Assembly (NCBI GenBank): GCA_040218735.1
Contig: JAVJQW010000041.1
Location: 160,001-224,000, forward strand
Length of the DNA: 64,000 bases
DNA from: Deltaproteobacteria bacterium
GTDB taxonomy: Bacteria; Myxococcota; Kuafuiibacteriia; Kuafuiibacteriales; Kuafuiibacteriaceae
Direction: 5' to 3'
The translations under genes and the position numbers were made by a program. Shown piece by piece: positions 4,989 to 17,666 of the stretch. The notes under the pieces are model-generated. The model was not told the DNA's origin, did no database searches, and saw only the letters and a list, made by a program, of their open reading frames with translations. Each line of letters opens with the position of its first letter. Positions within the stretch are counted from its first letter, which is position 1.

Positions 4989-5837
4989 TCAGGCCGCCTC
5001 GCCCTGCGGGCGCACGATCTCCAACGTCTCGTAGGGCATCACGACGCCCGCCGTGCGCAGCGCCTCGAAGAGCTGCTCGCGTAGCGCGAAGCGCTCGCGC
5101 ACGTGTGACTTCTCGTCCTGCAACCAGGCCTGCAGCTCGACCTCGACGTTGTAGTCGTTGAGCGCCTTAACGACGAGGCGGGGCGCGGGCTCGGAGAGGT
5201 ACGCCTCGTTGTCCTTCACGAGGTCGAGCGCGAGCTGGCGCACCCGCCCGAGATCCTCGTTCACACCGACCGTCGCGCCGACGTCGAGCCGGAGGTTCGG
5301 GAAGTTCGTGTACGAGACGACCGTGGAGTTCACGATCGTCGTGTTCGGGATGGCGAGCATCCGACCGTCGACGGTCACGACCCGGGTGCTCCGCAGCGTG
5401 ATCTGATCGACGCGCCCGTACTGCCCGTCGATCTCCACGAGGTCGCCCAGCACGAACGGGCGATCCCAGAAGATGAACAGCCCGGCGATGATGTTGGACA
5501 ACGCGTCCTTCGCCGCGAAGCCGATCGTCAGGCCGGCGACGCCGAGGCTCGCGAGCACCGAGCCGGTGTTGATGCCGAGCTGCCCGAGCGCCATCACCCC
5601 CGCGACGATGAAGATCGCGGCGCGCGCGACGCCGGTGACGAACGAGTGCGCGGTGCTGTCGATCGCCGCGCGCTCCATGAGCGCACCCGTCGCGCGACGC
5701 ACGACTCGCCACAGGAGCCAGGCGACGAACAGGACGAGCAACGCCACCGCCAGGTCCGGCAGGCGATCCGCGACCCAGTTTGCGAGTTGTCGGGGGTCGA
5801 AGCGTTCGGCGAGGCGCGCCAGGAACTCGTTCATCAT
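4989..5837 (-). CDS. mscS: Small-conductance mechanosensitive channel (MscS family)
   Basis: 3 TMs, LGVAGLTIGFAAKDALSNIIAG, RPFVLGD, G.V..ITLRST, IPN motifs. Confidence 0.9.
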   Translation of the reverse strand: MMNEFLARLAERFDPRQLANWVADRLPDLAVALLVLFVAWLLWRVVRRATGALMERAAIDSTAHSFVTGVARAAIFIVAGVMALGQLGINTGSVLASLGVAGLTIGFAAKDALSNIIAGLFIFWDRPFVLGDLVEIDGQYGRVDQITLRSTRVVTVDGRMLAIPNTTIVNSTVVSYTNFPNLRLDVGATVGVNEDLGRVRQLALDLVKDNEAYLSEPAPRLVVKALNDYNVEVELQAWLQDEKSHVRERFALREQLFEALRTAGVVMPYETLEIVRPQGEAA

Positions 5838-5881: not shown

Positions 5882-7192
5882 TCAGGCGAAGGCGGAGAGC
5901 ACCGGCTTGCCGACGCCGACGGCCTCGTTGAGCTTCGACTCCGGAACGCCGAGCGCGAGGCCGAGGGTCTTGGCCATCGATCCGAGCGTCTCGTCGTACG
6001 GGATGTCGCCGCCGGAGGCGCCGCTCGCCGAGTCGATGGACGTCGCGCGGTAGTCGTTGCCGTTGCGCTCGATGCCGCCGATGACGCCGCCCTTGAGGAC
6101 GTCGCCGATCATCACCGTCACGTGGTGCCCGCGGTTGTGGTCGCGCCCGTTCGTCCCCTTCTTGCGGAGGGTCCGACCGAACACGTTCAGCGTGCCGACG
6201 ATGACTTCGTGCCGCAGGACACCCTCGGACCGCAGCCCGTCGAGGTCCGCGACGAGCTGACCGATGCGCGCCACACCCGACACCGTCTGCGCGGTCTCGG
6301 CCACGAGGTCAGTGTCGTTGTGGTTGTCCCCGCCGAAGCGCCCCTTGATGGTGATCGCGGGCGTGATGTTCATCGCCGCGAGGATCGAGGCGGCCAGCGC
6401 CTGGTTGTCCTCGTCGTTGTTGTCGATGGCGTCGAGCCGCGTGAGCAGCACGTCGCTCACGCCGCGGACCTCGTCGCGCGAGCGAGCCCACGCGTCGAGC
6501 AGCGCGATGTCGCGCTTCGTCCCGTGGTCCTTGTACAGCCGGTAGAGGCGATCGATCTCCCGGTCGCGCAGCGGGGCGAGCGAGGCGAGGGGCCCCGTCG
6601 CACCACCGAGCGCCGCCTTGATCGAAGTCGGGCCGACGTTCGCCAGTACCTGGCCCGACGCCGACAACAGCTCGGAGCCGTTGCGCGCGCCGAGGCTGAG
6701 CGGGAGGTTCTGCACCGCGCCCTGCCGCGGCCCGAGCTCACGCGCGAGGATCGACACGAGCATCTCGTTGTCGTCCGTCGCGCCCATCATGCGCATGACC
6801 TTGTTCTGGTCCTGGTGCACGGGCGTGTACGTCGCGTGGTGGAAGAACACGGTGCGGTCGAGGACGTTCTGCGGGAGGTCCGCCCACGGCTTCGCCGCGG
6901 TGTAGTTCCGCCCCGAGAGACGCAGCTGCGTCGGCGCCATGAGCGGGTCCGCCGGGTGCGCCGCCTCGGACGCCGCGCCGCCGTACGTGCCGGGCACGTT
7001 GGCGTTGATCGGGTCGCCCGCGTTGGACGTCATCAGGATCAACATCCGCCCGGGGCCCTCGGCCAACTCGGAGGGCGACGCGCGCCCGGGGCGCGGGTTC
7101 AGGAGGATGCTCGCCGGGACACCGGTTGCGAGCGCGCGCAGCGCGATGCCCCCGGCGGCCGACTTCAACAGGTTACGTCGATTGAGCTTCAT
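5882..7192 (-). CDS. Tat-exported DUF1501/DUF1552-like protein
   Basis: Twin-arginine signal MKLNRRNLLKSAAGG; GGDNHND, FGRT and GRDHN motifs; lies downstream of a DUF1585-type partner. Confidence 0.7.
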   Translation of the reverse strand: MKLNRRNLLKSAAGGIALRALATGVPASILLNPRPGRASPSELAEGPGRMLILMTSNAGDPINANVPGTYGGAASEAAHPADPLMAPTQLRLSGRNYTAAKPWADLPQNVLDRTVFFHHATYTPVHQDQNKVMRMMGATDDNEMLVSILARELGPRQGAVQNLPLSLGARNGSELLSASGQVLANVGPTSIKAALGGATGPLASLAPLRDREIDRLYRLYKDHGTKRDIALLDAWARSRDEVRGVSDVLLTRLDAIDNNDEDNQALAASILAAMNITPAITIKGRFGGDNHNDTDLVAETAQTVSGVARIGQLVADLDGLRSEGVLRHEVIVGTLNVFGRTLRKKGTNGRDHNRGHHVTVMIGDVLKGGVIGGIERNGNDYRATSIDSASGASGGDIPYDETLGSMAKTLGLALGVPESKLNEAVGVGKPVLSAFA

Positions 7193-7206
7193 GACCGTTG
7201 TTCCTC

Positions 7207-9342
7207 TCAAAAGCCCACGCCGGCGACGCCCGGCGACATGCAGGCCACGACCAGCGCGCTCCGTCGCGCGTTGTACGGGGTCGCGCCGGCGTCGATGCCG
7301 TCCGCGACGTGCTCGGTGAGGATCTGAATCGCGGGGTCGTGGCGCGGGTCGCCCTCGGGCAGACCCATCACGTCCGTGACCATCTTCGCGACGGCGTCCT
7401 CGTTGTTCAGGCCATCGAACGCAGCGGCGTACGCCCGCTCGCCGATCTCCTTGCAGACCACCTCACGCGTCGCGCGGGTGAACAGGCCCGTCTCCGAGAT
7501 CGTGATGGGCTCCGGCTCTCCGCGGCTGACCGTGTCCGCCGGGATGGAGCCGACCGCGTTGAGCATCCGGGACTGCAGGCCGCTGCGCTCGCGGGGCAGG
7601 GTGTCGATGCCGCAGACGTCCGCGACGCCGAGGCGGTTCGACAGCTGCGCGCAGAACTGCTCGCGGCGGCTGATCGACGGACCGCGCTGCACCTTCTCGT
7701 CGACGCACTTCGCGTTCGTCACGAGCGGCGAGGCGAGCAGCTCACGAATCAGGACCTTGAAGTCGAACTCGGAGCCCTCGAACGCGGCGATGACCCGCTC
7801 GAGCTCCGCGGAGTTCTGACACGGCGCTGCGTTGGCGTAGTAGCAGAGCTTCTGCGTCCACCCGCGCGCGAAGTCGGGGTGGTTCGCGAGGATCGTCGCG
7901 AGGTCCTGCACGCCGGTGCCGGTCTGCTGCACGCCGCGGAAGACAAACGTCGCCGGGAGGTCGATGCGCTCCTGGTCGTGCTGCTGGCCGTACGCATTGG
8001 TGTACGAGTTGCGGAAGAACTCGCGCATCGGGTCGAGCGTCTGGTGGCAGCCGTAACACGGCGAGCCGGGCGCGGAGTGCTCGGCGTCGAGGTTCGGCGG
8101 CGAGAAGTCCGTGACGGTCTGCCCGTCGAAGCTCTCGCCGAGCGCGGTGATGAGCGTCTGGTTGAGCGTGACGCGGGACGAGTTGTCCTCGTTGGTCGGC
8201 CACGTCGCGAAGAAGCCGAGCGTCGTGAAGAACCCGACGCGGTCGCCGTGGAGCGCGAGCTCCTCGGCGTTGCGCAGCTGCGGGAGGCGGTAGAAACGAA
8301 TCGGCGTCTCGCCGTTCCCGGCCTTGCGGATGCGAATCGGCCGCCAGTCGTTGAAGTCCGCGCGGGTGAGGAGCGGGTTGCGACGCGCCGGGCGGGCGCG
8401 GCAGTTGTTGCCGGCGCCGACGTTCCGGACGTTGTCCATCCGGCCGAGGATCGCCTGGAACAGCCAGAACGCCTTGTTCGGGATCGCGTTCTGCTGGAAC
8501 CCCATCTCGTTCACGTTGTTGGCGAGGCAAAGCTCGTCGAAGTTCGGCACCCAGATGCGCAGGAAGTTGGGGCTGTTCGGGTTGAGGATCTGGTTCGCCG
8601 GCGGCTCGTCCGCCTTGTTGCGGAGCGCGGTGAAGTCCGTGACCTCGTTCATCGCGCGCGTGAAGACGGTGTCGTCGTCGCGCACGTGGCGGTGGTCGAG
8701 GTACGCGTAGAAGAACATCAACGCGGTCGTCATCTCGAACGTGTCGGTGGTGACCACGTCCTTGAAGGGGCGACCGGACTTCGCGATCGACAGCGCGGTG
8801 CGCGCGAAGCTCTCCTCGATGTTCTTGATCATGAGGTTCTCGCCGAGCTCGCGGTTGTCGTCGAAGCGACCCCACGCGATGTTCCGCGACTTGAGCATCG
8901 GCATCAGGCCCTCGCCGGTGACCTGGTCCTGCTGGAACGCCATCATGAAGAAGCGCCGCAGCACGGTCTCGGCTTCGGGGGTGTCGAACCACGCCTCGAC
9001 GAGCTCACCGATCGCCTCCGGGTCCTCCTTCAACGTCCGCAGCTCGGCGGACGTGAGCGGCAGGCCCGTGAGGAGTGTCTTCACCTTCGCGCCGTACACG
9101 TGCGGCCCCGAGAGCTGGTCGACCGCGCAGTTCTCGGCTTCACCGACCGGCGTCGTCCCGACGGGGAACGTCGGGATCGGCTCGACCGGATCCGGGTCGG
9201 GCATGGGGTCCGGATCGGGTTTGGGATCCGGCTTCGGATCGACGATCGGATTGGGCTCGATGTTGCCGTTGACCGTCGGCTGCGCGTTGCAGCCGACGAG
9301 CGCCGTCATCACCCCGAGGGTCATCCACAGCTCGAGTTTCAT
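7207..9342 (-). CDS. Heme-c lipoprotein, DUF1585/DUF1588/DUF1592 (PSD/PSCyt)-like
   Basis: Lipobox LVGC, PD linker, VKTLLTGLP, NQTLITALG, CYGCH heme motif followed by LDP, C-terminal QKLC..AN. ATGA-coupled to the upstream gene. Confidence 0.72.
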   Translation of the reverse strand: MKLELWMTLGVMTALVGCNAQPTVNGNIEPNPIVDPKPDPKPDPDPMPDPDPVEPIPTFPVGTTPVGEAENCAVDQLSGPHVYGAKVKTLLTGLPLTSAELRTLKEDPEAIGELVEAWFDTPEAETVLRRFFMMAFQQDQVTGEGLMPMLKSRNIAWGRFDDNRELGENLMIKNIEESFARTALSIAKSGRPFKDVVTTDTFEMTTALMFFYAYLDHRHVRDDDTVFTRAMNEVTDFTALRNKADEPPANQILNPNSPNFLRIWVPNFDELCLANNVNEMGFQQNAIPNKAFWLFQAILGRMDNVRNVGAGNNCRARPARRNPLLTRADFNDWRPIRIRKAGNGETPIRFYRLPQLRNAEELALHGDRVGFFTTLGFFATWPTNEDNSSRVTLNQTLITALGESFDGQTVTDFSPPNLDAEHSAPGSPCYGCHQTLDPMREFFRNSYTNAYGQQHDQERIDLPATFVFRGVQQTGTGVQDLATILANHPDFARGWTQKLCYYANAAPCQNSAELERVIAAFEGSEFDFKVLIRELLASPLVTNAKCVDEKVQRGPSISRREQFCAQLSNRLGVADVCGIDTLPRERSGLQSRMLNAVGSIPADTVSRGEPEPITISETGLFTRATREVVCKEIGERAYAAAFDGLNNEDAVAKMVTDVMGLPEGDPRHDPAIQILTEHVADGIDAGATPYNARRSALVVACMSPGVAGVGF

Positions 9343-10865
9343 GGTCTCACTCCTCCACCGAGCCACTCTTCGATGATCGTGACTTGGTCCTCGCCCCAGC
9401 TGGGGCTGCGCGATTGCCTGGGCGGCATGTCACCGAACTCGATGACACGCGCGCGAATCTTGTCGGCGCGTTCGACCCACGCCTCGTAGGAATCGATCGT
9501 CGGCGCCGCCGGGTTGGCGCCGTCCGCGTGGCAGCTCGCGCAGTGCTCTTGGTAGATCGGGCGGACGTCTTCTTCGAACGTCCGGATCACCGCGGGCTCG
9601 CGCTTGAGCGCCAAGGTTCGTTGGGTGTCGCCGGCGGCGAGCGTCAGCTCGTGCCAGCCGAGGGACAGCGCGCCCGAGAACTCGAACCAGCCGTCCGTCA
9701 CGCGCGTCGCCGGCACGTCGGTGTCGCCGTCGGTGAGCGTGACCATCGTGGCGCCGTCGCTCGCTTGCACGCGGAGGGCGAAGGTCTCGTCGACGCTTCG
9801 GGTGCCGCTGCGGAGCCCCGCGATGCGCAGCATCGTGGCGGGGGCGTAGTGACAGACCTCGGCTTCGGTCGCGGTCCACAGGCCGCCGGAAGCGTGCGGG
9901 TGGAGGGCGCCCGTCGCGCCGGCGACCGCGAGGAACGTCTCGCCGTCGAAGCGGAGCACCTGACCGTCGACGACCACCCACGCGTAGGCGCCGGCCGTCG
10001 CGAGCGCCGTCGCGTCGCCGGCTTCGAAGCGGTACTCCGTCCAGGGTTCGGGGCCCACGAAGAGGTTGCCGTCGGCGAGGACCAGGACGCGGTCGCCGAG
10101 GAGCGCCGGGTCGTGGCCGGACTCGATCGCGGCGGGTCGGGTGAACGCGGCCGGCTGCAAGCGCCACAGCTCGAGGTCCTTGGTCTCGAACCACACGCCG
10201 TCGTCGATGCCCGCGCACTCGTTGTCGCGGGGGAGGAGGGCGGCGTCGGTCGCGAGCGCGTCCTCGAAGCCGGTCCACTCGATCCAGCTGTCGCCGTCGC
10301 GCTGGAACACGGCGCCGTTCGAGGTGATGAACGCCGAGGCGGTGGGGTCGCCGCAGAAGGAGGCGTCCGGGGCGAGCGCCATCGGCGCCGACACGACGGT
10401 GCGGTCACCTTCGACGACCGAGAACAGCTGGCCGTCCGCGAGCATCGACGCGGTCGTGGCGGACCAGGCGCGGACGACGCTGATGTCGGTCGCGGCGAGG
10501 CGGTAGGTGGAGACCTCGCCGATCGCCCAACCGTCGACGACGCGCACCGTGGCGGCTTCGGTCGTGCTGGTGGTGGCGAGCCAGAGGTGGCCCTCGGGGC
10601 TCACGTCGAGGATCTGTTCGGCGGCGCCGCGCGCAGCGCAGGTCGCCGTGGTCGTCAGGGCGCCGGGCGCCGAGACGGTGATCCAAGGGTCCGGCATGGG
10701 GTCGGGGTCGGGATCCGGATCGGGATCAGGGTCCGGATCGGGATCCGGGTCCATCACGTCGGGCGGCGGGGCGATGACGCCGGGGCAGCCGTAGGCGCCC
10801 GCGAGGACCAAGGTCAGGATGGTGATTTGCCCCCATCCGGGGCGGCGTTTCGTGACGATGCGCAC
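9339..10865 (-). CDS. Lipoprotein with propeller-like region and C-terminal cytochrome c domain
   Basis: Lipobox AYGC and (PD)n linker; C-terminal FEEDVRPIYQEHCASCH...MPP...W, a planctomycete-cytochrome-like CxxCH with axial Met. Confidence 0.75.
   Translation of the reverse strand: MRIVTKRRPGWGQITILTLVLAGAYGCPGVIAPPPDVMDPDPDPDPDPDPDPDPDPMPDPWITVSAPGALTTTATCAARGAAEQILDVSPEGHLWLATTSTTEAATVRVVDGWAIGEVSTYRLAATDISVVRAWSATTASMLADGQLFSVVEGDRTVVSAPMALAPDASFCGDPTASAFITSNGAVFQRDGDSWIEWTGFEDALATDAALLPRDNECAGIDDGVWFETKDLELWRLQPAAFTRPAAIESGHDPALLGDRVLVLADGNLFVGPEPWTEYRFEAGDATALATAGAYAWVVVDGQVLRFDGETFLAVAGATGALHPHASGGLWTATEAEVCHYAPATMLRIAGLRSGTRSVDETFALRVQASDGATMVTLTDGDTDVPATRVTDGWFEFSGALSLGWHELTLAAGDTQRTLALKREPAVIRTFEEDVRPIYQEHCASCHADGANPAAPTIDSYEAWVERADKIRARVIEFGDMPPRQSRSPSWGEDQVTIIEEWLGGGVRP
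10688..10755 (-). repeat. Pro-Asp hexamer tandem repeat (linker)
   Basis: ggatcc/ggatcg/gggtcc hexamers encoding DPDPDPDPDPDPDPDPDPMPDP; a similar tract lies at ~9190-9250. Confidence 0.85.
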
Positions 10866-10876
10866 CTACTGAAACC

Positions 10877-10905
10877 AGTGGTCGGGCGTCGCCAAAACGG
10901 CCCAC
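10877..10905 (-). promoter_or_regulatory. Candidate ECF sigma promoter GTGGGCCGTTT-N13-CCACT
   Basis: Same boxes and same 13-nt spacer as the copy upstream of the ECF gene (16745-16773); 11 nt upstream of the GTG start at 10865. Confidence 0.7.
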
Positions 10906-10956
10906 TCCACGTGCGGTTTTTTGGGGCTTTTTGTCCCGCCGACCCGCGGAGGCCGA

Positions 10957-13900
10957 TCAGGGCGTGAATTCGTGGTGTCCGATGTCCACGCGGCCGCCCT
11001 GGGGGCGCGCCGTGGCGAACCGATCGACCTCGGGCGCGCCGTCGGAGCGCCCGGCGTCACGCGCCGGGGAGCGGGCCGACAGGCGGGAGATCGAGCGTCG
11101 ATGTTCGAGGCCGTGCGCCTGGAACAGCGGCGGGAGGATGAGGTTTTCCCGCCCCTGGACCTCCGCCTCGTACGACACGAAGTCGGTCGACGTGTACCGC
11201 GGTCCGTCCTCGACGCGGACGTACGAGCCCCCCTCGCCGCGCTCGGCGGACTCGACGAACAGGAGGTTGTTCTCCAGCCGGCCCACCGCCATCACGGCGC
11301 CGCCGGAGCGCTCGAAGATTGCGGTCGGGTCGGCGGTCAGCGCGCCGTCCTCGCGGATGAGGACGATGTTGTTGAACAGCGCCGCGGCCCCCTGCGTCAC
11401 CCGGTCGAAGACGATGCCGCGTTTGTCGACGGAGCGGTCTTCGGCGTCGAGCGCCTCGACCTCGATGACGTTGTTCCACAGCTCGAGCGAGGAGACGCCC
11501 GTGGCGTAGAGCCCCACGAGGTCCACGCCGCGCGTGGCCGCGATGTAGTTGTTCGCGAGGTACGCGTCGTTGCCGCTCAGCACGATCAGGCGCGCACCGA
11601 CGGCGTCGATGTTCGGCACCGTGTTGAAGTTGCCGCGTCGCCCCGTGTTCACGCCGTTGCGCTCCAGCCGGAGCCCGCGCGACGCGAGCGGCGGCTCGAC
11701 GTAGGGGGCGAGGCCGTCGCGGATCGCCGAAACCCACGGGCGCACCGCGGGCGGGCACTCGAGCGGTACGGAGAGCACGCCGGTGCGGACTTCGCTCTGT
11801 TCGATCGTCACGTTCGTCGTGTCGACGGTCCAGATCCCCGGGACCGCCGGTGGAAGCACGCGGTCCTCGCCGTCCCACACGCCGCTCGACGCGCCGCCGA
11901 AGACGCCCGTGTCGCGCGTCGAGTTGCGGCCGTTGCGCGCGAGCGTCGCGGTGGACGTGCCGACGAGCAGGATCCCCGCGGCGACGTCTGCCCCCTCGCG
12001 CGTCGCGGGCTCCGCGTTGCAGTCGACGCCGGTCCACGCGTACGCGGAGCGGCCCGCGACGATCTGGCGGTTGTCGAGGATCGCGAGGCGTCGCGAGCCG
12101 CCGACGATGACGGTGCCGTCGCGGAGCACTTCACCGTCCGCGATACCGGCGGAGAATCGGTGACCCGACGGCTGCCACGTCGCGCCCACGATGTTGTTGT
12201 TCGAGATCTCCAAGTCGTCCGTCGCTCGGGTGCGAATCGCGACCGTGGTGTTCGCGGGATTGCCGTTGCGCGTGTACGCGGCGATGCGGGTGAGCCCGCG
12301 GATACGTCCGGTGGGGCGTCGACCGGCGCGCGCTTCGACGTAGATGCCGTACGCGCGTGCGTTCGCGCCGTAGGCTTCGACGTCGATCGTGTCGCCGAGG
12401 AGATCGATGTCGACGTTCCCGCGTGCGTGGATGCCGCGGCAAGTTCCGTTGCAGGAGAGGAGCTCGATCGAGCTGTCGTCGTTCCAGACGAGCTGCGCCG
12501 GGGCAGCCGTCTCCGCGGTCACGACGATCCCCGTCGCGCCGTTCTGGTTCCCCTCGGAGCGGACGTCGGTCCCGACGAGCCGAACGTTGGAGGCGATCGT
12601 CTCCGCGTCGATCGCCATACCTACGCTCCCGACCCCCGTCGGGAGCACGAGCTCGGCACCTTCGAAGCGCGGCGACGCATCGACGACGCGCACCAGCGTT
12701 CGTTCGCCGGTGCCGGTGAAGATGATGTTACGCAGCGTCGACGTGTACCCCGCGGCGAAGCGCAGCTCGCCGGTGTTGTTGAAGTGCAGGCGCGCGCGAG
12801 TGGTGTTCGGGTGGCCGCCGCCGCCGAACGCGGCGTTGGCGCCGACACCGACCGGCAAGGTCAACGGCGTGCCGCGGTTGAAGCGCCCGCCGGCGGCGAC
12901 GCACACGTCGCCGCCGGTGTTCTGCGCGCGGGTGATCGCGGGCCCCACGTTCGGGAGCGCATCGGCGACGGCGGGGCCCGTGCCGTCGCCGGTGCCGCCG
13001 ACGCGGACCCACGAGCAGTCCCGGACGATCACCCGCAAGGCCCGCGAGGTCTCCACGCCGTCGAAGCCGTCGCGCGCGAACAACGTGAGGTTGTAGGTCC
13101 CGGCGGGGAGGGCAGCGTCGAAGCGCATCTCCTCACCCTCGCAAGGTGCGTTGCAGGTGAGCCGGTCCGCGTCGGGGCCGCCCCAACGGATCGTGACCGG
13201 GTTGTCCGGGTCCGTCGGGACCACCGGACGCAGCCAGGTGCGGATGCCGGTGCTCGCGTGCACGATGATGCGGCCGCCGTCGAGCACGCCGCCCGCGAGC
13301 TCGGAGACCCTCGGGCGGGTGTTGCGCATCCGGACACGAATCGTGTCGGCGTGAACGCCGGCGATGCGCAGCTCGATGGTGTACTCGCAGTCGAGCTTGG
13401 CGGGGTCGTCGACGATCGCGACCGTGCGTTCGGTGGTGTCGATCGTGTCGCGCGGCTCGGTGAGGACGACGTCCGTCGGGCTGCAGGTGTCGTCGGGGAC
13501 GGCGCCGATGACGGCCCACTTGCGACCGAGCTCGAGCGTCGGCGGTGTCAACACGGCTTGCACGACGCGCGTGGTGCCGTGCTCGATGACGATGACGCCA
13601 TCGCCGTCCTGGAAGGATGCGGTGATGTGCGTGCACCCGTTGAAGTCGAGGTAGTCCGCGAAGCCGTTGCAGTCGTTGTCGATGCCGTCGTCGCAGATCT
13701 CCGTGCGTCCCGGGTGCTGCGTGATGTCGTTGTCGTTGCAGTCGTTGGGACCGAGCGGGCAGATCAGCGGCTCGAGGTCGTAGTCGACGGTGGAGTCGCA
13801 GTACCCGTCGCGATCGTCGTCGCAGCCGTTGTCGACGACGCCGTCGCAGTCGTCGTCGAGATCGTTACAGCGTTCGACGCGGGGCGCGAGCGGGATGCAG

Positions 13901-14097
13901 GTGTTCGCGACGTCGCCGACACACGCGGGGACCGAGCGCCGACAGATGCCCTCGCCGCACTCCAGATCGGGCTGCGTGGCGTCGCACACCACCGGGGGCG
14001 GTGGCGGAGGCGGCGGAGGATCACGTTCTTCGAGGAGCGCGCCGACGTCCTTGCCGGAGCACCCCGCGAGCAGGATGAGGATCAGCGCGCGCCTCAT
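10957..14097 (-). CDS. Large surface lipoprotein: Cys/Asp-rich metal-binding (MopE-like) motifs, beta-helix, choice-of-anchor-Q-like C-terminus
   Basis: MRRALILILLAGC lipobox; ERCNDLDDDCDGVVD and EICDDGIDNDCNG repeats; C-terminal SPARDAG...RPQG..VDIGHHEF. Confidence 0.75.
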   Translation of the reverse strand: MRRALILILLAGCSGKDVGALLEERDPPPPPPPPPVVCDATQPDLECGEGICRRSVPACVGDVANTCIPLAPRVERCNDLDDDCDGVVDNGCDDDRDGYCDSTVDYDLEPLICPLGPNDCNDNDITQHPGRTEICDDGIDNDCNGFADYLDFNGCTHITASFQDGDGVIVIEHGTTRVVQAVLTPPTLELGRKWAVIGAVPDDTCSPTDVVLTEPRDTIDTTERTVAIVDDPAKLDCEYTIELRIAGVHADTIRVRMRNTRPRVSELAGGVLDGGRIIVHASTGIRTWLRPVVPTDPDNPVTIRWGGPDADRLTCNAPCEGEEMRFDAALPAGTYNLTLFARDGFDGVETSRALRVIVRDCSWVRVGGTGDGTGPAVADALPNVGPAITRAQNTGGDVCVAAGGRFNRGTPLTLPVGVGANAAFGGGGHPNTTRARLHFNNTGELRFAAGYTSTLRNIIFTGTGERTLVRVVDASPRFEGAELVLPTGVGSVGMAIDAETIASNVRLVGTDVRSEGNQNGATGIVVTAETAAPAQLVWNDDSSIELLSCNGTCRGIHARGNVDIDLLGDTIDVEAYGANARAYGIYVEARAGRRPTGRIRGLTRIAAYTRNGNPANTTVAIRTRATDDLEISNNNIVGATWQPSGHRFSAGIADGEVLRDGTVIVGGSRRLAILDNRQIVAGRSAYAWTGVDCNAEPATREGADVAAGILLVGTSTATLARNGRNSTRDTGVFGGASSGVWDGEDRVLPPAVPGIWTVDTTNVTIEQSEVRTGVLSVPLECPPAVRPWVSAIRDGLAPYVEPPLASRGLRLERNGVNTGRRGNFNTVPNIDAVGARLIVLSGNDAYLANNYIAATRGVDLVGLYATGVSSLELWNNVIEVEALDAEDRSVDKRGIVFDRVTQGAAALFNNIVLIREDGALTADPTAIFERSGGAVMAVGRLENNLLFVESAERGEGGSYVRVEDGPRYTSTDFVSYEAEVQGRENLILPPLFQAHGLEHRRSISRLSARSPARDAGRSDGAPEVDRFATARPQGGRVDIGHHEFTP

Positions 14098-15029
14098 GCG
14101 CCCCCCCAGCGAGCGTCCAACGCGAGCGCGCCGCCGAGCCACGCGCCGTACAGACCCGCGCGTTCGTCGCCGGCGTCGCCGAAGACACCCGACGCGGTGT
14201 ACCCGCCCTCGACTTCGAGCGCGACGCCCACGTCACCACCATAGCGGATCCGCCCGCCGATCCGCGGACCGAACCACGGCCCGCTTCCGGTGCGAGTGTC
14301 CACGTTGTCCGACTCGGTGCGCCCGGAGAGCCACGCCCATCCGCCGCGGAAGCCGATCGAGACCAGCCCGTCGAGGCGCGGCAGCAGCGCGCGGCGTCGC
14401 CCGACGACGAAGGCCGCCGAGACGAAACGCGTGCGCACGTCGCCGAGCGCGACCGTTCCGTCGGACTGCGAGAAGCCGCCGTCGACCGCGACGGTCCAGC
14501 CGTCGAAGTCCACCGCGACACGCCCTCGCGCGCCGAACGCAACCGGGGTTGCGCCGGGCATCACCCGCACCGTTGGCGCCGCGGCGATCGACAGGTCGAG
14601 GGGGCGCGCCACCGTCGCCGAGACCGGCGTCGAAACGACGCTCGGCGCCGGCGCTTCCGTGACGAACGCGCGGCGCCGCTCCACGATCGGCACGTCGTTC
14701 ACGAGCTCGACGATGTTCAGCGCGACGAGCCGCGCGCCGCCGCTCGCGCGGACGTCGTCGAGCGCGATGCGTCGCTCCGCGATGTCCTGCACGACGCGAT
14801 CGCCGAGCGCGCGATCGCTGGCGACGAAGATCCTGAGCAGCTCGGAGGTGCAAGCCGTCCTGACGACGAGCTCCGCGTCACCCTCGGTGAGGCGCGCGAC
14901 GCCGATTTCGATACCGACGAGGTCGTGGACGAGGTCGGGCGAGGGAACGCACTCCGCCAGGTCCAGGCGCACGGGACCGTCCGTCGCGCCGACGGCCAGC
15001 CACACCAGGAGCGCCTGGGTCGCGATCAT
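14094..15029 (-). CDS. Exported protein with probable C-terminal small beta-barrel (ECF/FecR-associated)
   Basis: Signal-like N-terminus; alternating hydrophobic/Gly-rich strands ending ALDARW; ATGA-coupled on both sides. Confidence 0.55.
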   Translation of the reverse strand: MIATQALLVWLAVGATDGPVRLDLAECVPSPDLVHDLVGIEIGVARLTEGDAELVVRTACTSELLRIFVASDRALGDRVVQDIAERRIALDDVRASGGARLVALNIVELVNDVPIVERRRAFVTEAPAPSVVSTPVSATVARPLDLSIAAAPTVRVMPGATPVAFGARGRVAVDFDGWTVAVDGGFSQSDGTVALGDVRTRFVSAAFVVGRRRALLPRLDGLVSIGFRGGWAWLSGRTESDNVDTRTGSGPWFGPRIGGRIRYGGDVGVALEVEGGYTASGVFGDAGDERAGLYGAWLGGALALDARWGGA

Positions 15030-16174
15030 CGCGCTCGCCCGGCCAGCCTCCTCATGCTCTTCACTTTACGGCCCTCCGGGTAGCGCGTCAGATACGTCGA
15101 CGCGCGGTCCTTCGCCTTGTCCCGCTCCCCCGCGAGCGCCCAGCACTCCGCTTCGTGGGCGAGGGCGTCCTCGGCGAGGGACCCGGTGGGGCCGAGCACG
15201 CGCGCCTTCGCAAAGGCCTCCGCCGCGCGGCGCGGCTCCTTGAGCTCGTTCTGCCAGAGGCGTCCGAGCGTGAAGGCCGCGACGAGCGCGCGCGGGTGGT
15301 TCGGGTGCCGGTCGACGACGATCTTCAGGTACCGCGCGGCGTCCCGCGGGTGCCCGGAGAGGCGCGCGACGTCGGCCGCGAGCATCAGGTCCTTGGTACC
15401 GCGCGGCGCGCGGGTGGTGCGGTCGAGGGCGTCGAACGCGTCGTCGAACTTTCCGTCCTCCGCGAGGGCGGTCCACCGCTCCTTCTTCTGCGTTTGTTTC
15501 TTCTTGCGCGCGCGCTTCCGACGTTTCTTCCGCTTCTTGGGTTCGGGCTCGGGCTCGACTTCGTCTTCGGCGGCTTCGTCGACGACGACGCGTCCCGCGA
15601 CGAAGGCCAGCTTCATGTCGCGGCCGAGCTCGTACCGGTTGTCGCCGGCGAACACGGCGACCCGGCCTTCGTGCACGGAGACGTCGACCTCGTCCTCGGG
15701 CCGCACGGCGACGGTGAACGAGGTGCCGATGACCTCCACGTACAGGTCCTGCGCGCGCACCCGGAACAGGCGCGTGTCGCTCGGGACGACCTCGAAGCGC
15801 GCTTCGCCGGCCGCGAGGCTCAGCTCGAGCAGATCTTCCTGCGACGCCTCCACGCGGACCTCGGTGCGCGGCTGCATCAGCGTCGCGTGGGAACCGTCCG
15901 CGAAGTAGACGACGCGCTGCTGCGGCGCGACCGGCTTCGGGTCCGTCGCGGCGATCGGCCTGGCGGGGACGACGATCGGGTCCGCGCCGGGGAGGCTCAT
16001 GACGACCGCGGCGACGAGCGCGACCGCCGCGACGCCGCCGGCGCCCATCTGACGACGGCGTCGACGAATGCGCCGCTGCTCGAACCGGTGAAGCGCGCGT
16101 GCGGTGTCGCGCTCCGAGGCGTCGACGACCAGAAGGTCGCGCGCGCCCGCGAGATCGCGCTCGAGGTCACGCAT
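15026..16174 (-). CDS. FecR-domain anti-sigma factor with C-terminal TPR
   Basis: Single TM after RRRRR; FADGS..., L.AGEARFEV, VEVIGTSF.V, VSVHEGRVAV FecR motifs; TPR helices ending YL.RYPEG. Confidence 0.85.
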   Translation of the reverse strand: MRDLERDLAGARDLLVVDASERDTARALHRFEQRRIRRRRRQMGAGGVAAVALVAAVVMSLPGADPIVVPARPIAATDPKPVAPQQRVVYFADGSHATLMQPRTEVRVEASQEDLLELSLAAGEARFEVVPSDTRLFRVRAQDLYVEVIGTSFTVAVRPEDEVDVSVHEGRVAVFAGDNRYELGRDMKLAFVAGRVVVDEAAEDEVEPEPEPKKRKKRRKRARKKKQTQKKERWTALAEDGKFDDAFDALDRTTRAPRGTKDLMLAADVARLSGHPRDAARYLKIVVDRHPNHPRALVAAFTLGRLWQNELKEPRRAAEAFAKARVLGPTGSLAEDALAHEAECWALAGERDKAKDRASTYLTRYPEGRKVKSMRRLAGRAR

Positions 16175-16730
16175 CGACGGCCGCCTGGATCCGGGCCTGC
16201 GCCGCGGCGAGGAGTCGCTTCACGGTGCTGAGCCCCATGTCGGTGAGTTTCGCGATGTCCTCCAGCTTCTCACCTTCGATGAAACGGAGGACCCAGACCA
16301 CCCGTGCTTTCGCGGGGAGGTCGTCGAGGGTCCGGTAGACCTGCAGAAGGAGCGTCGCGTGCTCCTGGCGAGGGTTGTGGAAGAAGGCGTCGAGGTCGAT
16401 CGGCTGGTCGAGGCCGAAGGTCGCCGCGAGCCGGAGGCGGCGCAGGCGCTTGATGGCGACCCGGACCGCGATGGACCGGACCCACCCCTTGGCGGCGCGA
16501 CGGTCCCGGAGCTTGCCGAAGCCGCGGTGCACTTCGAGGAAGACGTCTTGGACGAAGTCGTCGACCTCGCTCTTTCGACCGAGCATCCTGAGGCCGATCG
16601 TCGCCACGAGCCGGTGGTAGCGGCTGAAGCACTCCTCGAATGTCGCTGGCCCTTCATCCGGTGGCTCGACCGCCTGACCCTTCACCAGCCGCAGACCGAC
16701 GTCTTGGGAGCTGGGCTTGGTCGGAGGCAT
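16167..16730 (-). CDS. ECF-family RNA polymerase sigma factor
   Basis: Region 2 (DDFVQDVF, W...IA) and region 4 (LDDLP, EGEKLEDIA..TDM..STVKRLL); overlaps the FecR gene. Confidence 0.92.
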   Translation of the reverse strand: MPPTKPSSQDVGLRLVKGQAVEPPDEGPATFEECFSRYHRLVATIGLRMLGRKSEVDDFVQDVFLEVHRGFGKLRDRRAAKGWVRSIAVRVAIKRLRRLRLAATFGLDQPIDLDAFFHNPRQEHATLLLQVYRTLDDLPAKARVVWVLRFIEGEKLEDIAKLTDMGLSTVKRLLAAAQARIQAAVDA

Positions 16731-16744
16731 CCCTCAACCAGCAT

Positions 16745-16773
16745 AGTGGGCCCGGCGTCCAGAAACGGCCCAC
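16745..16773 (-). promoter_or_regulatory. Candidate autoregulatory ECF promoter GTGGGCCGTTT-N13-CCACT
   Basis: 14 nt upstream of the sigma ATG; duplicated with identical spacing at 10877-10905. Confidence 0.7.
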
Positions 16774-16880
16774 GGAACCATCAAATTTTCGAGACGTGGT
16801 CCCCAGCCGTGATCCAACCCGGGACTTTGGGCGTGGGCCAGCGCACGAAAGAGAGAAATCACGCCCTCGCGACGTCTCTG

Positions 16881-16908
16881 TACAGGGATGAAATGAAGAT
16901 GCCGATAG
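16881..16908 (+). promoter_or_regulatory. Possible sigma28/FliA-type promoter (TACAG..GCCGATAG)
   Basis: GCCGATAG at 16901-16908 matches the GCCGATAA -10 consensus at 7/8; TACAG at 16881 resembles TAAAG. Confidence 0.35.
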
Positions 16909-16931
16909 AACGGTCGATGAATGGGCACGTG

Positions 16932-17666
16932 ATGTATCGGATCCCCGCCGAGCCCCCGCAGGCCCACGCTTTTGGCGGACGGTTGAAATCCCTGTCGCTC
17001 GCGGCTATCTACCGAACCTTGACCGGCGACCTCCCCATCCCGCGGCAGCCCTCGGTCAAGCCGCCCAACCTGTATGGGGACCACTACGGGGCCTGGGCCC
17101 AGGCGGCCCGACAGGCTCGCGCCGGCACTCAGCACCCGATCGACGAGCTCCTCGCCGAGCACCATCTGATGCGTCGGATGTTCGAGGCGATGCGCACCGA
17201 GGCCGTCGAGATCGCCCGGCGGCGCCCGATGAACCTCGACTTTTGGGCCAACGCCGTCGATGTCATCGGCAACTTTGCGCTCCTGATCCACTGGCGCAAG
17301 AAGGCCAACCACCTCTTCCCGCTCATCCGCGACCGCGGCTTCGCCGACCACCTCGCGAAGCTCGAAAAAGAGCAGGACCAGGACATCGCCAACACGCTCG
17401 AGCTCTGCGACGCCGTCCAAGACGGTGACCGCGAGAGCGTGGTGCGCCTCGTTTCGCTCTACACCGGCGCGAAGCAGCGCCACATGGAGCGCGAGGAGCA
17501 GACCGTGTTGCTCCCGTCCAAGGACGTGCTCACGCCCGAGGACGTCGCGACCCTCCGCGCCAAGTTCGACGAGGTCGACGAAGGCGCCATGCCCGGCGCC
17601 GGCCGCGCGCACTACTACGGCGTGGCCATCGACGTGATGAACCACGTCGGCATCGACCCGGACTGA
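16932..17666 (+). CDS. Hemerythrin-fold (HHE) protein with degenerate metal site; start uncertain (16893/16917/16932)
   Basis: HPIDELLAEH, H....HLFP, RHMEREEQTVLLP pattern. Confidence 0.7.
   Translation: MYRIPAEPPQAHAFGGRLKSLSLAAIYRTLTGDLPIPRQPSVKPPNLYGDHYGAWAQAARQARAGTQHPIDELLAEHHLMRRMFEAMRTEAVEIARRRPMNLDFWANAVDVIGNFALLIHWRKKANHLFPLIRDRGFADHLAKLEKEQDQDIANTLELCDAVQDGDRESVVRLVSLYTGAKQRHMEREEQTVLLPSKDVLTPEDVATLRAKFDEVDEGAMPGAGRAHYYGVAIDVMNHVGIDPD

Follow-up and report, generated by a model that had tools for sequence, protein, structure and literature searches.

A Shared Bipartite Box before an ECF Sigma/FecR-TPR Gene Set and a Neighboring Cytochrome-c-Like Lipoprotein Operon: A Candidate Seven-Gene Envelope Regulon in a Myxobacterium

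Among the extracytoplasmic function (ECF) sigma factors of the ECF classification 2.0, group ECF267 is a myxobacterial one, known from Sorangium and Chondromyces; in the parts of that work covered here, neither a conserved promoter motif nor a known output is recorded for it, and one to three Ser/Thr protein kinases are noted nearby (Casas-Pastor et al. 2021, PMC7826278). The genes for PSCyt/PSD proteins ("planctomycete-specific" cytochrome c proteins) are described as unexplained in function in the portion of He et al. (2017, PMC5615132) covered here. In this study, we analyzed a stretch of 64,000 nucleotides (nt) of a myxobacterial genome (contig JAVJQW010000041.1; hereafter the window), in which an ECF sigma gene and a gene for a FecR-like protein with a tetratricopeptide repeat (TPR) domain, FecR-TPR, head a unit of seven genes. 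The same bipartite box occurs twice in this unit, once ahead of the sigma gene (P_sig) and once ahead of a cytochrome-c-like lipoprotein gene (P_cyt), which is followed by a PSCyt/PSD-type gene and a DUF1501-like gene. Judged by its description and gene context, ECF267 is the closest described group to this sigma. The two boxes are probably promoters of the sigma encoded beside them.

A preliminary description of the window, made from its letters, had reported that P_sig and P_cyt (table 1) agree in all 16 box bases and in the length of a 13-nt spacer, and re-reading both sites gave the same result. P_sig ends 14 nt ahead of the ATG at 16730 that opens the sigma open reading frame (ORF) of 187 amino acids (aa). 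P_cyt sits within the 91-nt gap between the genes for a 1,061-aa and a 508-aa lipoprotein, and ends 11 nt ahead of the GTG at 10865 that opens the latter, the cytochrome-c-like one. A scan of the window allowing up to three mismatches returned these two sites only; in 100 shuffled windows the mean was 0.38 matches, and two or more were found in 5 of the 100. Across the whole genome that holds the window (G000; 11,606,468 bases, 68.8% G+C), with at most one mismatch the pattern TGGGCCGTTT-N13-CCACT, N13 being the spacer, matches P_sig and P_cyt only, with no match for the reversed control. Calculated from base composition, the number of chance matches expected genome-wide is about 0.01 for the 16-base pattern and about 0.9 for its 13-base core, GGGCCGTTT-N13-CCAC. 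The preliminary description had also pointed to GACGCC in both spacers; the shared hexamer is there, but it is not kept in other genomes and is therefore not part of the element.

A looser scan of G000, with one mismatch and variants of the spacing, yielded 40 extra matches, mostly inside long ORFs with a high G+C content at third codon positions. The most promoter-like of these (near G000:C61:191719, minus strand; GGGCCGTTTCTTGACTGGATCCCGCACT, in L136, G000:C61:188500-193000) has the wrong spacing and contains TTGACT-N16-TAGAAT, a good sigma-70-type promoter, and the gene that follows encodes a coiled-coil and TPR lipoprotein resembling CpoB/YbgF; this look-alike was therefore rejected as a target. 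Another extra match, at C28:29662, has no downstream ORF by the criteria used and was likewise set aside.

Lack of conservation of the motif upstream of orthologous sigma genes had been named beforehand as one of the points that could overturn the proposal. Our comparison set comprised 20 genomes, the same at family, order, and class level, of which five carry a sigma ortholog (G000, G001, G004, G006, and G011; 61–86% identical); together with the metagenome contig L138, this makes six sigma-bearing genomes or contigs of five or more genera. Both boxes are kept in all six, ahead of the sigma gene as well as the cytochrome gene, with a single change in the sigma-site box of G006 (TGGACC). An alignment of the ten sites of the five genomes has 12 invariant columns and 2 more at 90% or above, all of them within the two boxes; the distance between the boxes is constant, and spacers and flanks are divergent. 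A/T-rich tracts lie immediately 5' of the -35-like box at nine of the ten sites, in a genome of 69% G+C. Searched genome-wide without mismatches, the 13-base core is found only at the sigma and cytochrome sites in G000, G001, and G011, at the cytochrome site in G006, and at both sites plus one extra place in G004; matches with one mismatch occur at about the frequency of the reversed control in G004, G006, and G011 and are mostly intra-ORF in G000. G004, G006, and G011 have the seven genes in synteny, G001 has them split across two short contigs, and L138 is the sixth instance. The second box begins 3 nt past the upstream stop codon in G006, the element thus being retained even where the intergenic gap is minimal. 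The box before the cytochrome gene follows the distribution of the sigma: it is present in all six cases with a sigma ortholog and in none of the seven fetched loci that encode a cytochrome homolog without one (G002, two loci of G016, G039, L139, L140, and L142).

The extra site of G004 is a third perfect copy of the box (positions 1501-1526 of locus L026, G004:C67:12806-15036), lying between genes, some 150 nt ahead of one for a small lipoprotein, after which comes a homolog of a DUF1800/DUF1501 gene pair of G000 (L135). In G000, these homologs are a canonical DUF1800 gene (1.3e-65) and then a DUF1501 gene (4.6e-15), and this copy of the locus is without the box; the G004 contig ends inside the DUF1800-like gene. 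This gives the box another, independent association with genes of the DUF1800/DUF1501 kind.

To place the element in a wider family, we used an alignment scan with FecR-TPR, one genome per species, which gave 153 relatives, and the best 80 loci were kept. Nearly all of these 80 carry Myxococcota-type labels, with isolates of Myxococcus, Corallococcus, Archangium, Hyalangium, and Vitiosangium and metagenome-assembled genomes labeled Polyangiaceae, Sorangium, Sandaracinus, and Kofleriaceae. A related ECF sigma, 27–65% identical, is encoded directly upstream of FecR-TPR in 78 of them. Of 75 regions that precede the related sigma genes, 53 contain the hexamer TGAGCC, where 7.6 would be expected. 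We collected 59 unique sites by the box TGA[GA]C[CT] and read only positions outside that choice as informative: the box is followed by (G/A)TTT, and positions +24 to +27 are C in 38, A in 21, C in 47, and T in 30 of the 59. The family pattern, TGAGCC(G/A)TTT-N13-C(A)C(T), is in the same register as GGGCCGTTT-N13-CCACT in the window, and on this alignment the window boxes are a clade variant of the pattern found before related sigma genes, TGGGCC differing in its third base (A to G). A bipartite search with TGAGCC[GA]TT-N13-16-C[ACT]C gave 31 matches in 1.15 Mb of distant loci against one for the reversed control. In 23 of the 31, the match shares the strand of the sigma and is at most about 200 nt upstream of its estimated start; the others are upstream and divergent (four), downstream by 2.6–7.4 kb (three), or upstream by 1.7 kb (one). 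The expectation that the two window sites would lead to a promoter consensus for this ECF group finds support in this recurrence of the bipartite pattern ahead of related sigmas.

The predicted -35 recognition helix in region sigma-4.2 reads C-S-L-A-T-A-K-R-R-I in members with TGAGCC (Ser in 35/35, Arg in 33/35) and M-G-L-S-T/S-V-K-R-H/L/Q-L in the five members with TGGGCC or TGGACC. As one event in one clade, this change of helix alongside the change of the -35-like box is consistent with direct recognition. G000 also holds two paralogous sigma/FecR-type/barrel modules, at C54:43651-46945 (L010 = G000:C54:44846-48310) and at C67:5387-8700, whose sigma genes follow boxes of the TGAGCC type (GTGTGAGCCGTTTT...CGTCG at C54, GGGTGAGCCGATT...CCTCTATGCTGG at C67), and the TGGGCC variant may therefore insulate the window module from its paralogs. 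An additional GAGCCGTTTT box lies on the opposite strand just upstream at C67.

Autoregulation of the sigma, and a promoter shared with the cytochrome operon, had been the core of the preliminary description, and both find support in the conservation of the sites, their co-occurrence with the sigma, and the register of the family. We estimate a probability of about 0.8 that both boxes are cognate promoters of the adjacent ECF sigma and drive the sensor genes and the neighboring output operon. In such a circuit, FecR-TPR would sequester the sigma at the membrane via its short cytoplasmic N-terminus. An envelope signal would enter via the barrel protein encoded by the third gene and, in the close clade, perhaps via the large Cys-rich lipoprotein encoded by the fourth, and the sigma would be freed. 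The freed sigma would then guide RNA polymerase to TGGGCCGTTT as the -35 element and, 13 nt on, to CCAC(T) as the -10 element, at two places. P_sig would bring about positive autoregulation of the sigma, FecR-TPR, the barrel protein, and the large Cys-rich lipoprotein, and P_cyt would drive expression of the beta-propeller/cytochrome-c-like lipoprotein, the PSCyt3/PSD2-type CxxCH lipoprotein, and the Tat-exported DUF1501-like protein (Tat, twin-arginine translocation). The -10-like box lies 13–16 nt from the start codon of the sigma gene and 10–28 nt from that of the cytochrome gene in the sites compared, so that very short mRNA leaders would be expected at both promoters.

Directly 3' of CCACT, the sequence ATGCTG is conserved at sigma sites (window 16731-16744, L004, L021, L023, and L138); in G000 and G004 it is not in the reading frame of the sigma. 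At cytochrome sites, GGT takes its place after CCACT, and several distant family members have CTATG at the corresponding place. ATGCTG could be a start-site or discriminator region.

Two operons forming a seven-gene regulon had been envisaged. The extent of the unit is upheld by the synteny of all seven genes; their separation into two operons is less secure, as there is no terminator-like site between the 1,061-aa gene and the cytochrome gene in a scan with a simple consensus, in which a missing match is weak evidence. Given this, and given the G006 box starting so close to the upstream stop codon, P_cyt may be a promoter internal to one seven-gene unit, where it would probably supplement read-through from P_sig.

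The alternative that survives best, and that we still regard as unlikely, is that the boxes are regulatory but read by another factor, either the sigma of a paralogous module (C54 or C67) or a DNA-binding regulator that recognizes the conserved halves. G000 does hold both of these modules, and at its sigma site the -10 region GGCCCA is an inverted repeat of TGGGCC, which could suggest a dimeric binder. This symmetry is lost in the other nine sites, however, where CCA(C) alone is conserved; moreover, the paralogs have boxes of the TGAGCC type before their own genes, the helix of the clade differs at positions that are fixed in TGAGCC members, and the box tracks this sigma ortholog (6/6 vs. 0/7). 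Next in rank, and improbable as well, is P_sig as the sole promoter, with the second box serving, for instance, as an RNA or processing element inside a single seven-gene transcript. The lack of a terminator-like site between the gene sets and the position of the second box in G006 would both suit this arrangement. However, P_cyt keeps the two boxes and the spacing of P_sig with its spacer free to vary, as fits contact between protein and DNA rather than an RNA fold; A/T tracts precede the second box too, and divergent second boxes occur in other members of the family, where read-through is impossible. Chance resemblance or recent local copying of a short functionless sequence, to which the roughly one random match to the 13-base core expected per genome and the GACGCC common to both spacers could be taken to point, is very improbable given that both sites directly precede start codons on the coding strand and, with differing spacers, are kept at the corresponding places of all six sigma-bearing genomes or contigs (at least five genera), and that GACGCC is not conserved elsewhere.

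Several observations weigh against the boxes being cognate promoters of the adjacent sigma. The distance from the -10-like box to the sigma start is plausible and would leave an unusually short leader; many ECF promoters carry a -10 element of the CGT type, from which CCAC(T) differs; and the -10 part of the family pattern is weakly defined (C at +26 in 47/59, T at +27 in 30/59). The relatives compared are kin and mostly metagenome-assembled, so that the counts overstate independence, and the covariation of helix and -35-like box is a single event in one clade. Cross-recognition by the two paralogous modules of G000 is possible. A look for RNA runs covering positions 7000-16900 of the window returned none. 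Finally, the orthologs of the 311-aa and 1,061-aa proteins in G006 (L022, G006:C15, 4486-5440 and 5646-8637) each align as two pieces in different frames, and these breaks in two sensor genes are either assembly errors or indels, or decay.

Table 1.—Positions of the two putative promoters and of the seven genes in the 64,000-nt window.
Feature	Position	Strand	Description
P_sig	16745..16773	minus	Putative autoregulated ECF promoter; runs 16773->16745 as GTGGGCCGTTTCTGGACGCCGGGCCCACT
P_sig, -35-like box	16773-16763	minus	GTGGGCCGTTT
P_sig, spacer	16762-16750	minus	13 nt
P_sig, -10-like box	16749-16745	minus	CCACT
P_cyt	10877..10905	minus	Putative second promoter for the same sigma; runs 10905->10877 as GTGGGCCGTTTTGGCGACGCCCGACCACT
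P_cyt, -35-like box	10905-10895	minus	GTGGGCCGTTT
P_cyt, spacer	10894-10882	minus	
P_cyt, -10-like box	10881-10877	minus	CCACT
ECF sigma, 187 aa	16167..16730	minus	Sigma-2 and sigma-4 regions only
FecR-TPR, 382 aa	15026..16174	minus	Single-pass anti-sigma candidate; Pfam FecR 5.1e-12 and weak TPR matches
Exported protein, 311 aa	14094..15029	minus	N-terminal alpha/beta domain (20-121) and C-terminal 8-stranded barrel (145-308), predicted
Large lipoprotein, 1,061-aa ORF	10957..14142	minus	Lipobox; MopE-type Cys-rich metal-binding motif; C-terminal choice-of-anchor Q
Cytochrome-c-like lipoprotein, 508 aa	9339..10865	minus	C-terminal CxxCH
PSCyt3/PSD2-like lipoprotein, 719 aa	7207..9366	minus	CYGCHQTLDP; PSD2/DUF1585 match
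Tat-signal DUF1501-like protein, 442 aa	5882..7210	minus	N-terminal RRNLLK

The gene content of both sets is as first described, according to our ORF, Pfam, and NCBIfam checks. The sigma has the makeup of an ECF (group IV) sigma-70 factor, with a length of about 190 aa, matches to Sigma70_r2 (2.6e-13, 50 bits) and Sigma70_r4_2 (1.2e-7, 31.7 bits) in Pfam, and a score of 69.2 bits with the family model TIGR02937 (cut-off 42.9); no equivalog-level model reaches its cut-off. Directly downstream, a membrane anti-sigma candidate is encoded by the FecR-TPR gene, which overlaps the sigma stop codon, and upstream of the operon of the sigma lies the bipartite -35/-10 motif recognized by its conservation. 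FecR-TPR has a short N-terminus in the cytoplasm and crosses the membrane with a single helix; on the periplasmic side comes the FecR domain, then a linker rich in Lys and Arg and, at the C-terminus, the TPR domain. The large lipoprotein probably starts at the ATG at 14097, which overlaps the preceding stop codon and would give a protein of 1,046 aa. It matches Cu-binding_MopE in Pfam (4.6e-10) and choice_anch_Q in NCBIfam (2.8e-7), is confined to the close clade with orthologs 46–52% identical, and has no relative in a sequence search of solved structures.

Beyond the unit, a gene for an MscS-type mechanosensitive channel (window 4989-5837, minus) lies 44 nt past the DUF1501-like gene on the same strand, with no terminator-like site between the two in the simple scan; G001, of the same genus, is the only genome in which a homolog comes after the operon. 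On the other side, a gene at 16890-17666 (plus), whose product is hemerythrin/HHE-like by eye, is divergent to the sigma promoter region. In G001, the 350 nt that precede the sigma gene are similar to the window by eye, and G006 carries a moaC-like gene there, so the hemerythrin/HHE-like gene is probably outside the unit.

The third gene of the unit encodes a 311-aa exported protein without a match in Pfam or NCBIfam, which is predicted to end in an 8-stranded outer-membrane barrel like those of OmpA and OmpX. An AlphaFold2 model built with 13 sequences has a mean predicted local distance difference test (pLDDT) value of 77.7 and eight long strands over residues 145-308, where pLDDT is mostly 80–95. 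With Foldseek, this model matches the OmpA transmembrane domain, Ail, OmpX, and OmpW (probability 1.0, E values from 1e-7 to 2e-4, target template-modeling scores of 0.6–0.74). A protein-atlas search returned unnamed Myxococcota clusters only, with an outer-membrane-barrel lead of 0.87, which is under the counting level.

A profile of the barrel family was made from the orthologs and 18 first-round matches, and run on 4,974 stop-to-stop ORFs of at least 120 aa from the 80 loci. It matches directly after FecR-TPR in 66 loci and directly before the sigma in 8 more, so that the family flanks the sigma/FecR-TPR pair in 74 of the 80; one further match is 4 kb off. In the 5 loci left, the profile has no match, and 3 of these stop no more than 1.5 kb from FecR-TPR. 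In G000, with 26,450 ORFs of 200 aa or longer, it finds three genes only, each beside a family sigma, which indicates that the profile is specific. Outer-membrane barrels with an even number of strands usually have a topology in which an N-terminal domain faces the periplasm. With this topology, the N-terminal domain of the 311-aa protein would face the compartment that holds the FecR and TPR domains. Prediction of a complex between residues 63-382 of FecR-TPR and 17-311 of the barrel protein scored 0.58, with 0.04 for the best control. In calibration, 116 of 157 solved complexes attain the mark for this score, as do 2 of 215 mismatched pairs, and the range up to 0.60, into which our value falls, contains only 18 of the 157 and both of the passing mismatches. 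At least 32% of contacts are shared between runs, and the partner pLDDT is at least 73; this is weak support, and we treat the predicted contact as a lead. Surface signaling, as the preliminary description called the system, applies only in a loose sense, with a FecR domain and a predicted outer-membrane barrel; a TonB-dependent receptor or transducer, or an STN domain, has no match in the seven window proteins in Pfam or NCBIfam.

The three putative output proteins begin with the 508-aa lipoprotein, predicted to comprise a Pro/Asp linker, a beta-propeller (residues ~61-335), an Ig-like sandwich (336-422), and a C-terminal helical cytochrome-c-like domain (pLDDT 79, predicted template-modeling score 0.74). 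Its Pfam match to Cytochrome_CBB3 (1.1e-4) is below the cut-off (22.8 vs. 27), Foldseek gave generic beta-propeller matches that are uninformative on function, and C-X2/4-CH and MPP (C442, C445, H446, M480, P481, and P482) are invariant in the seven aligned sequences. The 719-aa protein matches PSD2 in Pfam (29.1 bits, cut-off 25.8) and weakly DUF1800; BLASTP aligns it to the PSCyt3-PSD2 part of an Archangium PSD protein (E value 7e-6) with C-x-GCH-x-LDP in register, and only the C-terminal part of the usual five-domain PSD/PSCyt architecture is detectable. We rejected it as a canonical DUF1800 protein, the BLASTP match to the DUF1800 protein of G000 not being significant (E value 0.035). For the 442-aa protein, the DUF1501 match covers a partial stretch and stands at the cut-off (27.0 bits vs. 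27; orthologs 31.9 in G011 and 26.9 in G006), and a sequence search of solved structures gave no relative. Both output lipoproteins have long Pro-Asp linkers (PDPDPDPDP...) straight after the lipobox (window 10700-10760 and 9200-9260, minus), which are presumably flexible tethers.

Second sites in other members of the family precede genes of a related kind or other exported proteins. In the Archangium locus, the second site is found before genes for a PSD3-PSD5-PSD4-PSCyt3-PSD2 lipoprotein and a DUF1552 protein, and boxes stand before a PSD/PSCyt and DUF1552 pair in L080, L081, L082, and L087; others precede DUF1552, an M60-like lipoprotein, lipoproteins including an IgGFc-binding-type protein, and an FG-GAP lipoprotein. 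Within 10 kb, DUF1552 homologs are found in 14 and PSD homologs in 16 of 76 distant loci. DUF1552 occurs at 16 places in the 1.15 Mb of distant loci and at 8 in the 11.6-Mb G000, a rough comparison given that the genomes are different and related.

Autoregulation of an ECF sigma together with control of a neighboring target operon is textbook circuit logic, and in this respect the circuit is ordinary; what is new is the promoter rule, the conserved third component, and the link to a class of outputs. The myxobacterial sigma/FecR-TPR family gains a promoter consensus, and the conserved barrel gene, if its predicted fold is right, suggests a signal route to a FecR-type anti-sigma without a TonB-dependent transducer. 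The TGGGCC and TGAGCC boxes, each with its own form of the helix, offer a case of promoter orthogonality in nature that could be put to use in synthetic circuits. Planctomycetota, Verrucomicrobiota, and Myxococcota hold PSCyt/PSD-type proteins in great abundance, and the box positions suggest a regulatory link to CxxCH proteins of this type and their DUF1501/DUF1552 partners. Putting these parts together, we tentatively propose, at slightly less than even odds, a widespread three-component envelope module of the Myxococcota (ECF sigma, FecR-TPR, and small barrel) as a TonB-independent counterpart of cell-surface signaling. It would use the code TGAGCC(G/A)TTT-N13-C(A)C(T), with paralogs kept apart by single-base changes of the -35 element and by changes of the helix, and would have PSCyt/PSD and DUF1552/DUF1501 proteins as a recurrent output. 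If this is true, the module would be a first regulatory handle on the conditions in which these proteins act. We found no paper linking an ECF sigma to DUF1552, DUF1501, or PSD genes, nor one describing a barrel partner for FecR-TPR, in a literature search that covered the supplement of PMC7826278 in part.

Compared with FecI/FecR/FecA, the window unit likewise has an ECF sigma and a single-pass anti-sigma candidate with a periplasmic FecR domain; it also co-encodes a predicted outer-membrane partner and has a proposed autoregulation with a neighboring target operon. Unlike FecA, this partner has the predicted form of a small barrel of eight strands preceded by an N-terminal domain; unlike FecR, the anti-sigma candidate has a C-terminal TPR domain; the sigma reaches only 46.1 bits with the FecI model NF041727, the cut-off of which is 260; and the output is not a transporter. 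The fold predicted for residues 145-308 of the 311-aa protein is that of OmpA, OmpX, Ail, and OmpW. In contrast to these, the protein is without a sequence-family match and its gene is fixed beside a sigma/anti-sigma pair, and unlike OmpA it has an extra N-terminal alpha/beta domain and not a C-terminal peptidoglycan-binding domain.

The output trio may resemble PSCyt/PSD pairs: a CxxCH protein of the PSCyt3/PSD2 type adjoins a Tat-signal protein that is possibly of the DUF1501 kind, here preceded by a cytochrome-c-like protein with CxxCH...MPP. Unlike in canonical pairs, the matches are weak and partial (29 bits for PSD2, and DUF1501 at the cut-off), and the trio, from a myxobacterium, consists entirely of lipoproteins or Tat substrates. 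PSCyt3/PSD proteins are usually paired with DUF1552 proteins, and DUF1800 or PSCyt2 proteins with DUF1501 proteins, which makes the pairing in the window unusual.

With ECF267, in so far as the description of the group was covered here, the window unit shares a FecR-like anti-sigma candidate fused to TPR at position +1 and the absence of a TonB-dependent receptor, and the Sorangium-labeled loci L089 and L122 carry a family sigma 40–43% identical to that of the window. None of the seven window proteins has a kinase domain in a Pfam scan of these seven. Unlike ECF267 as described in those parts of the classification, the window family conserves both a bipartite motif and a barrel gene and has outputs that recur, and it spans a much wider taxonomic range, as seen from the labels of the 80 loci.

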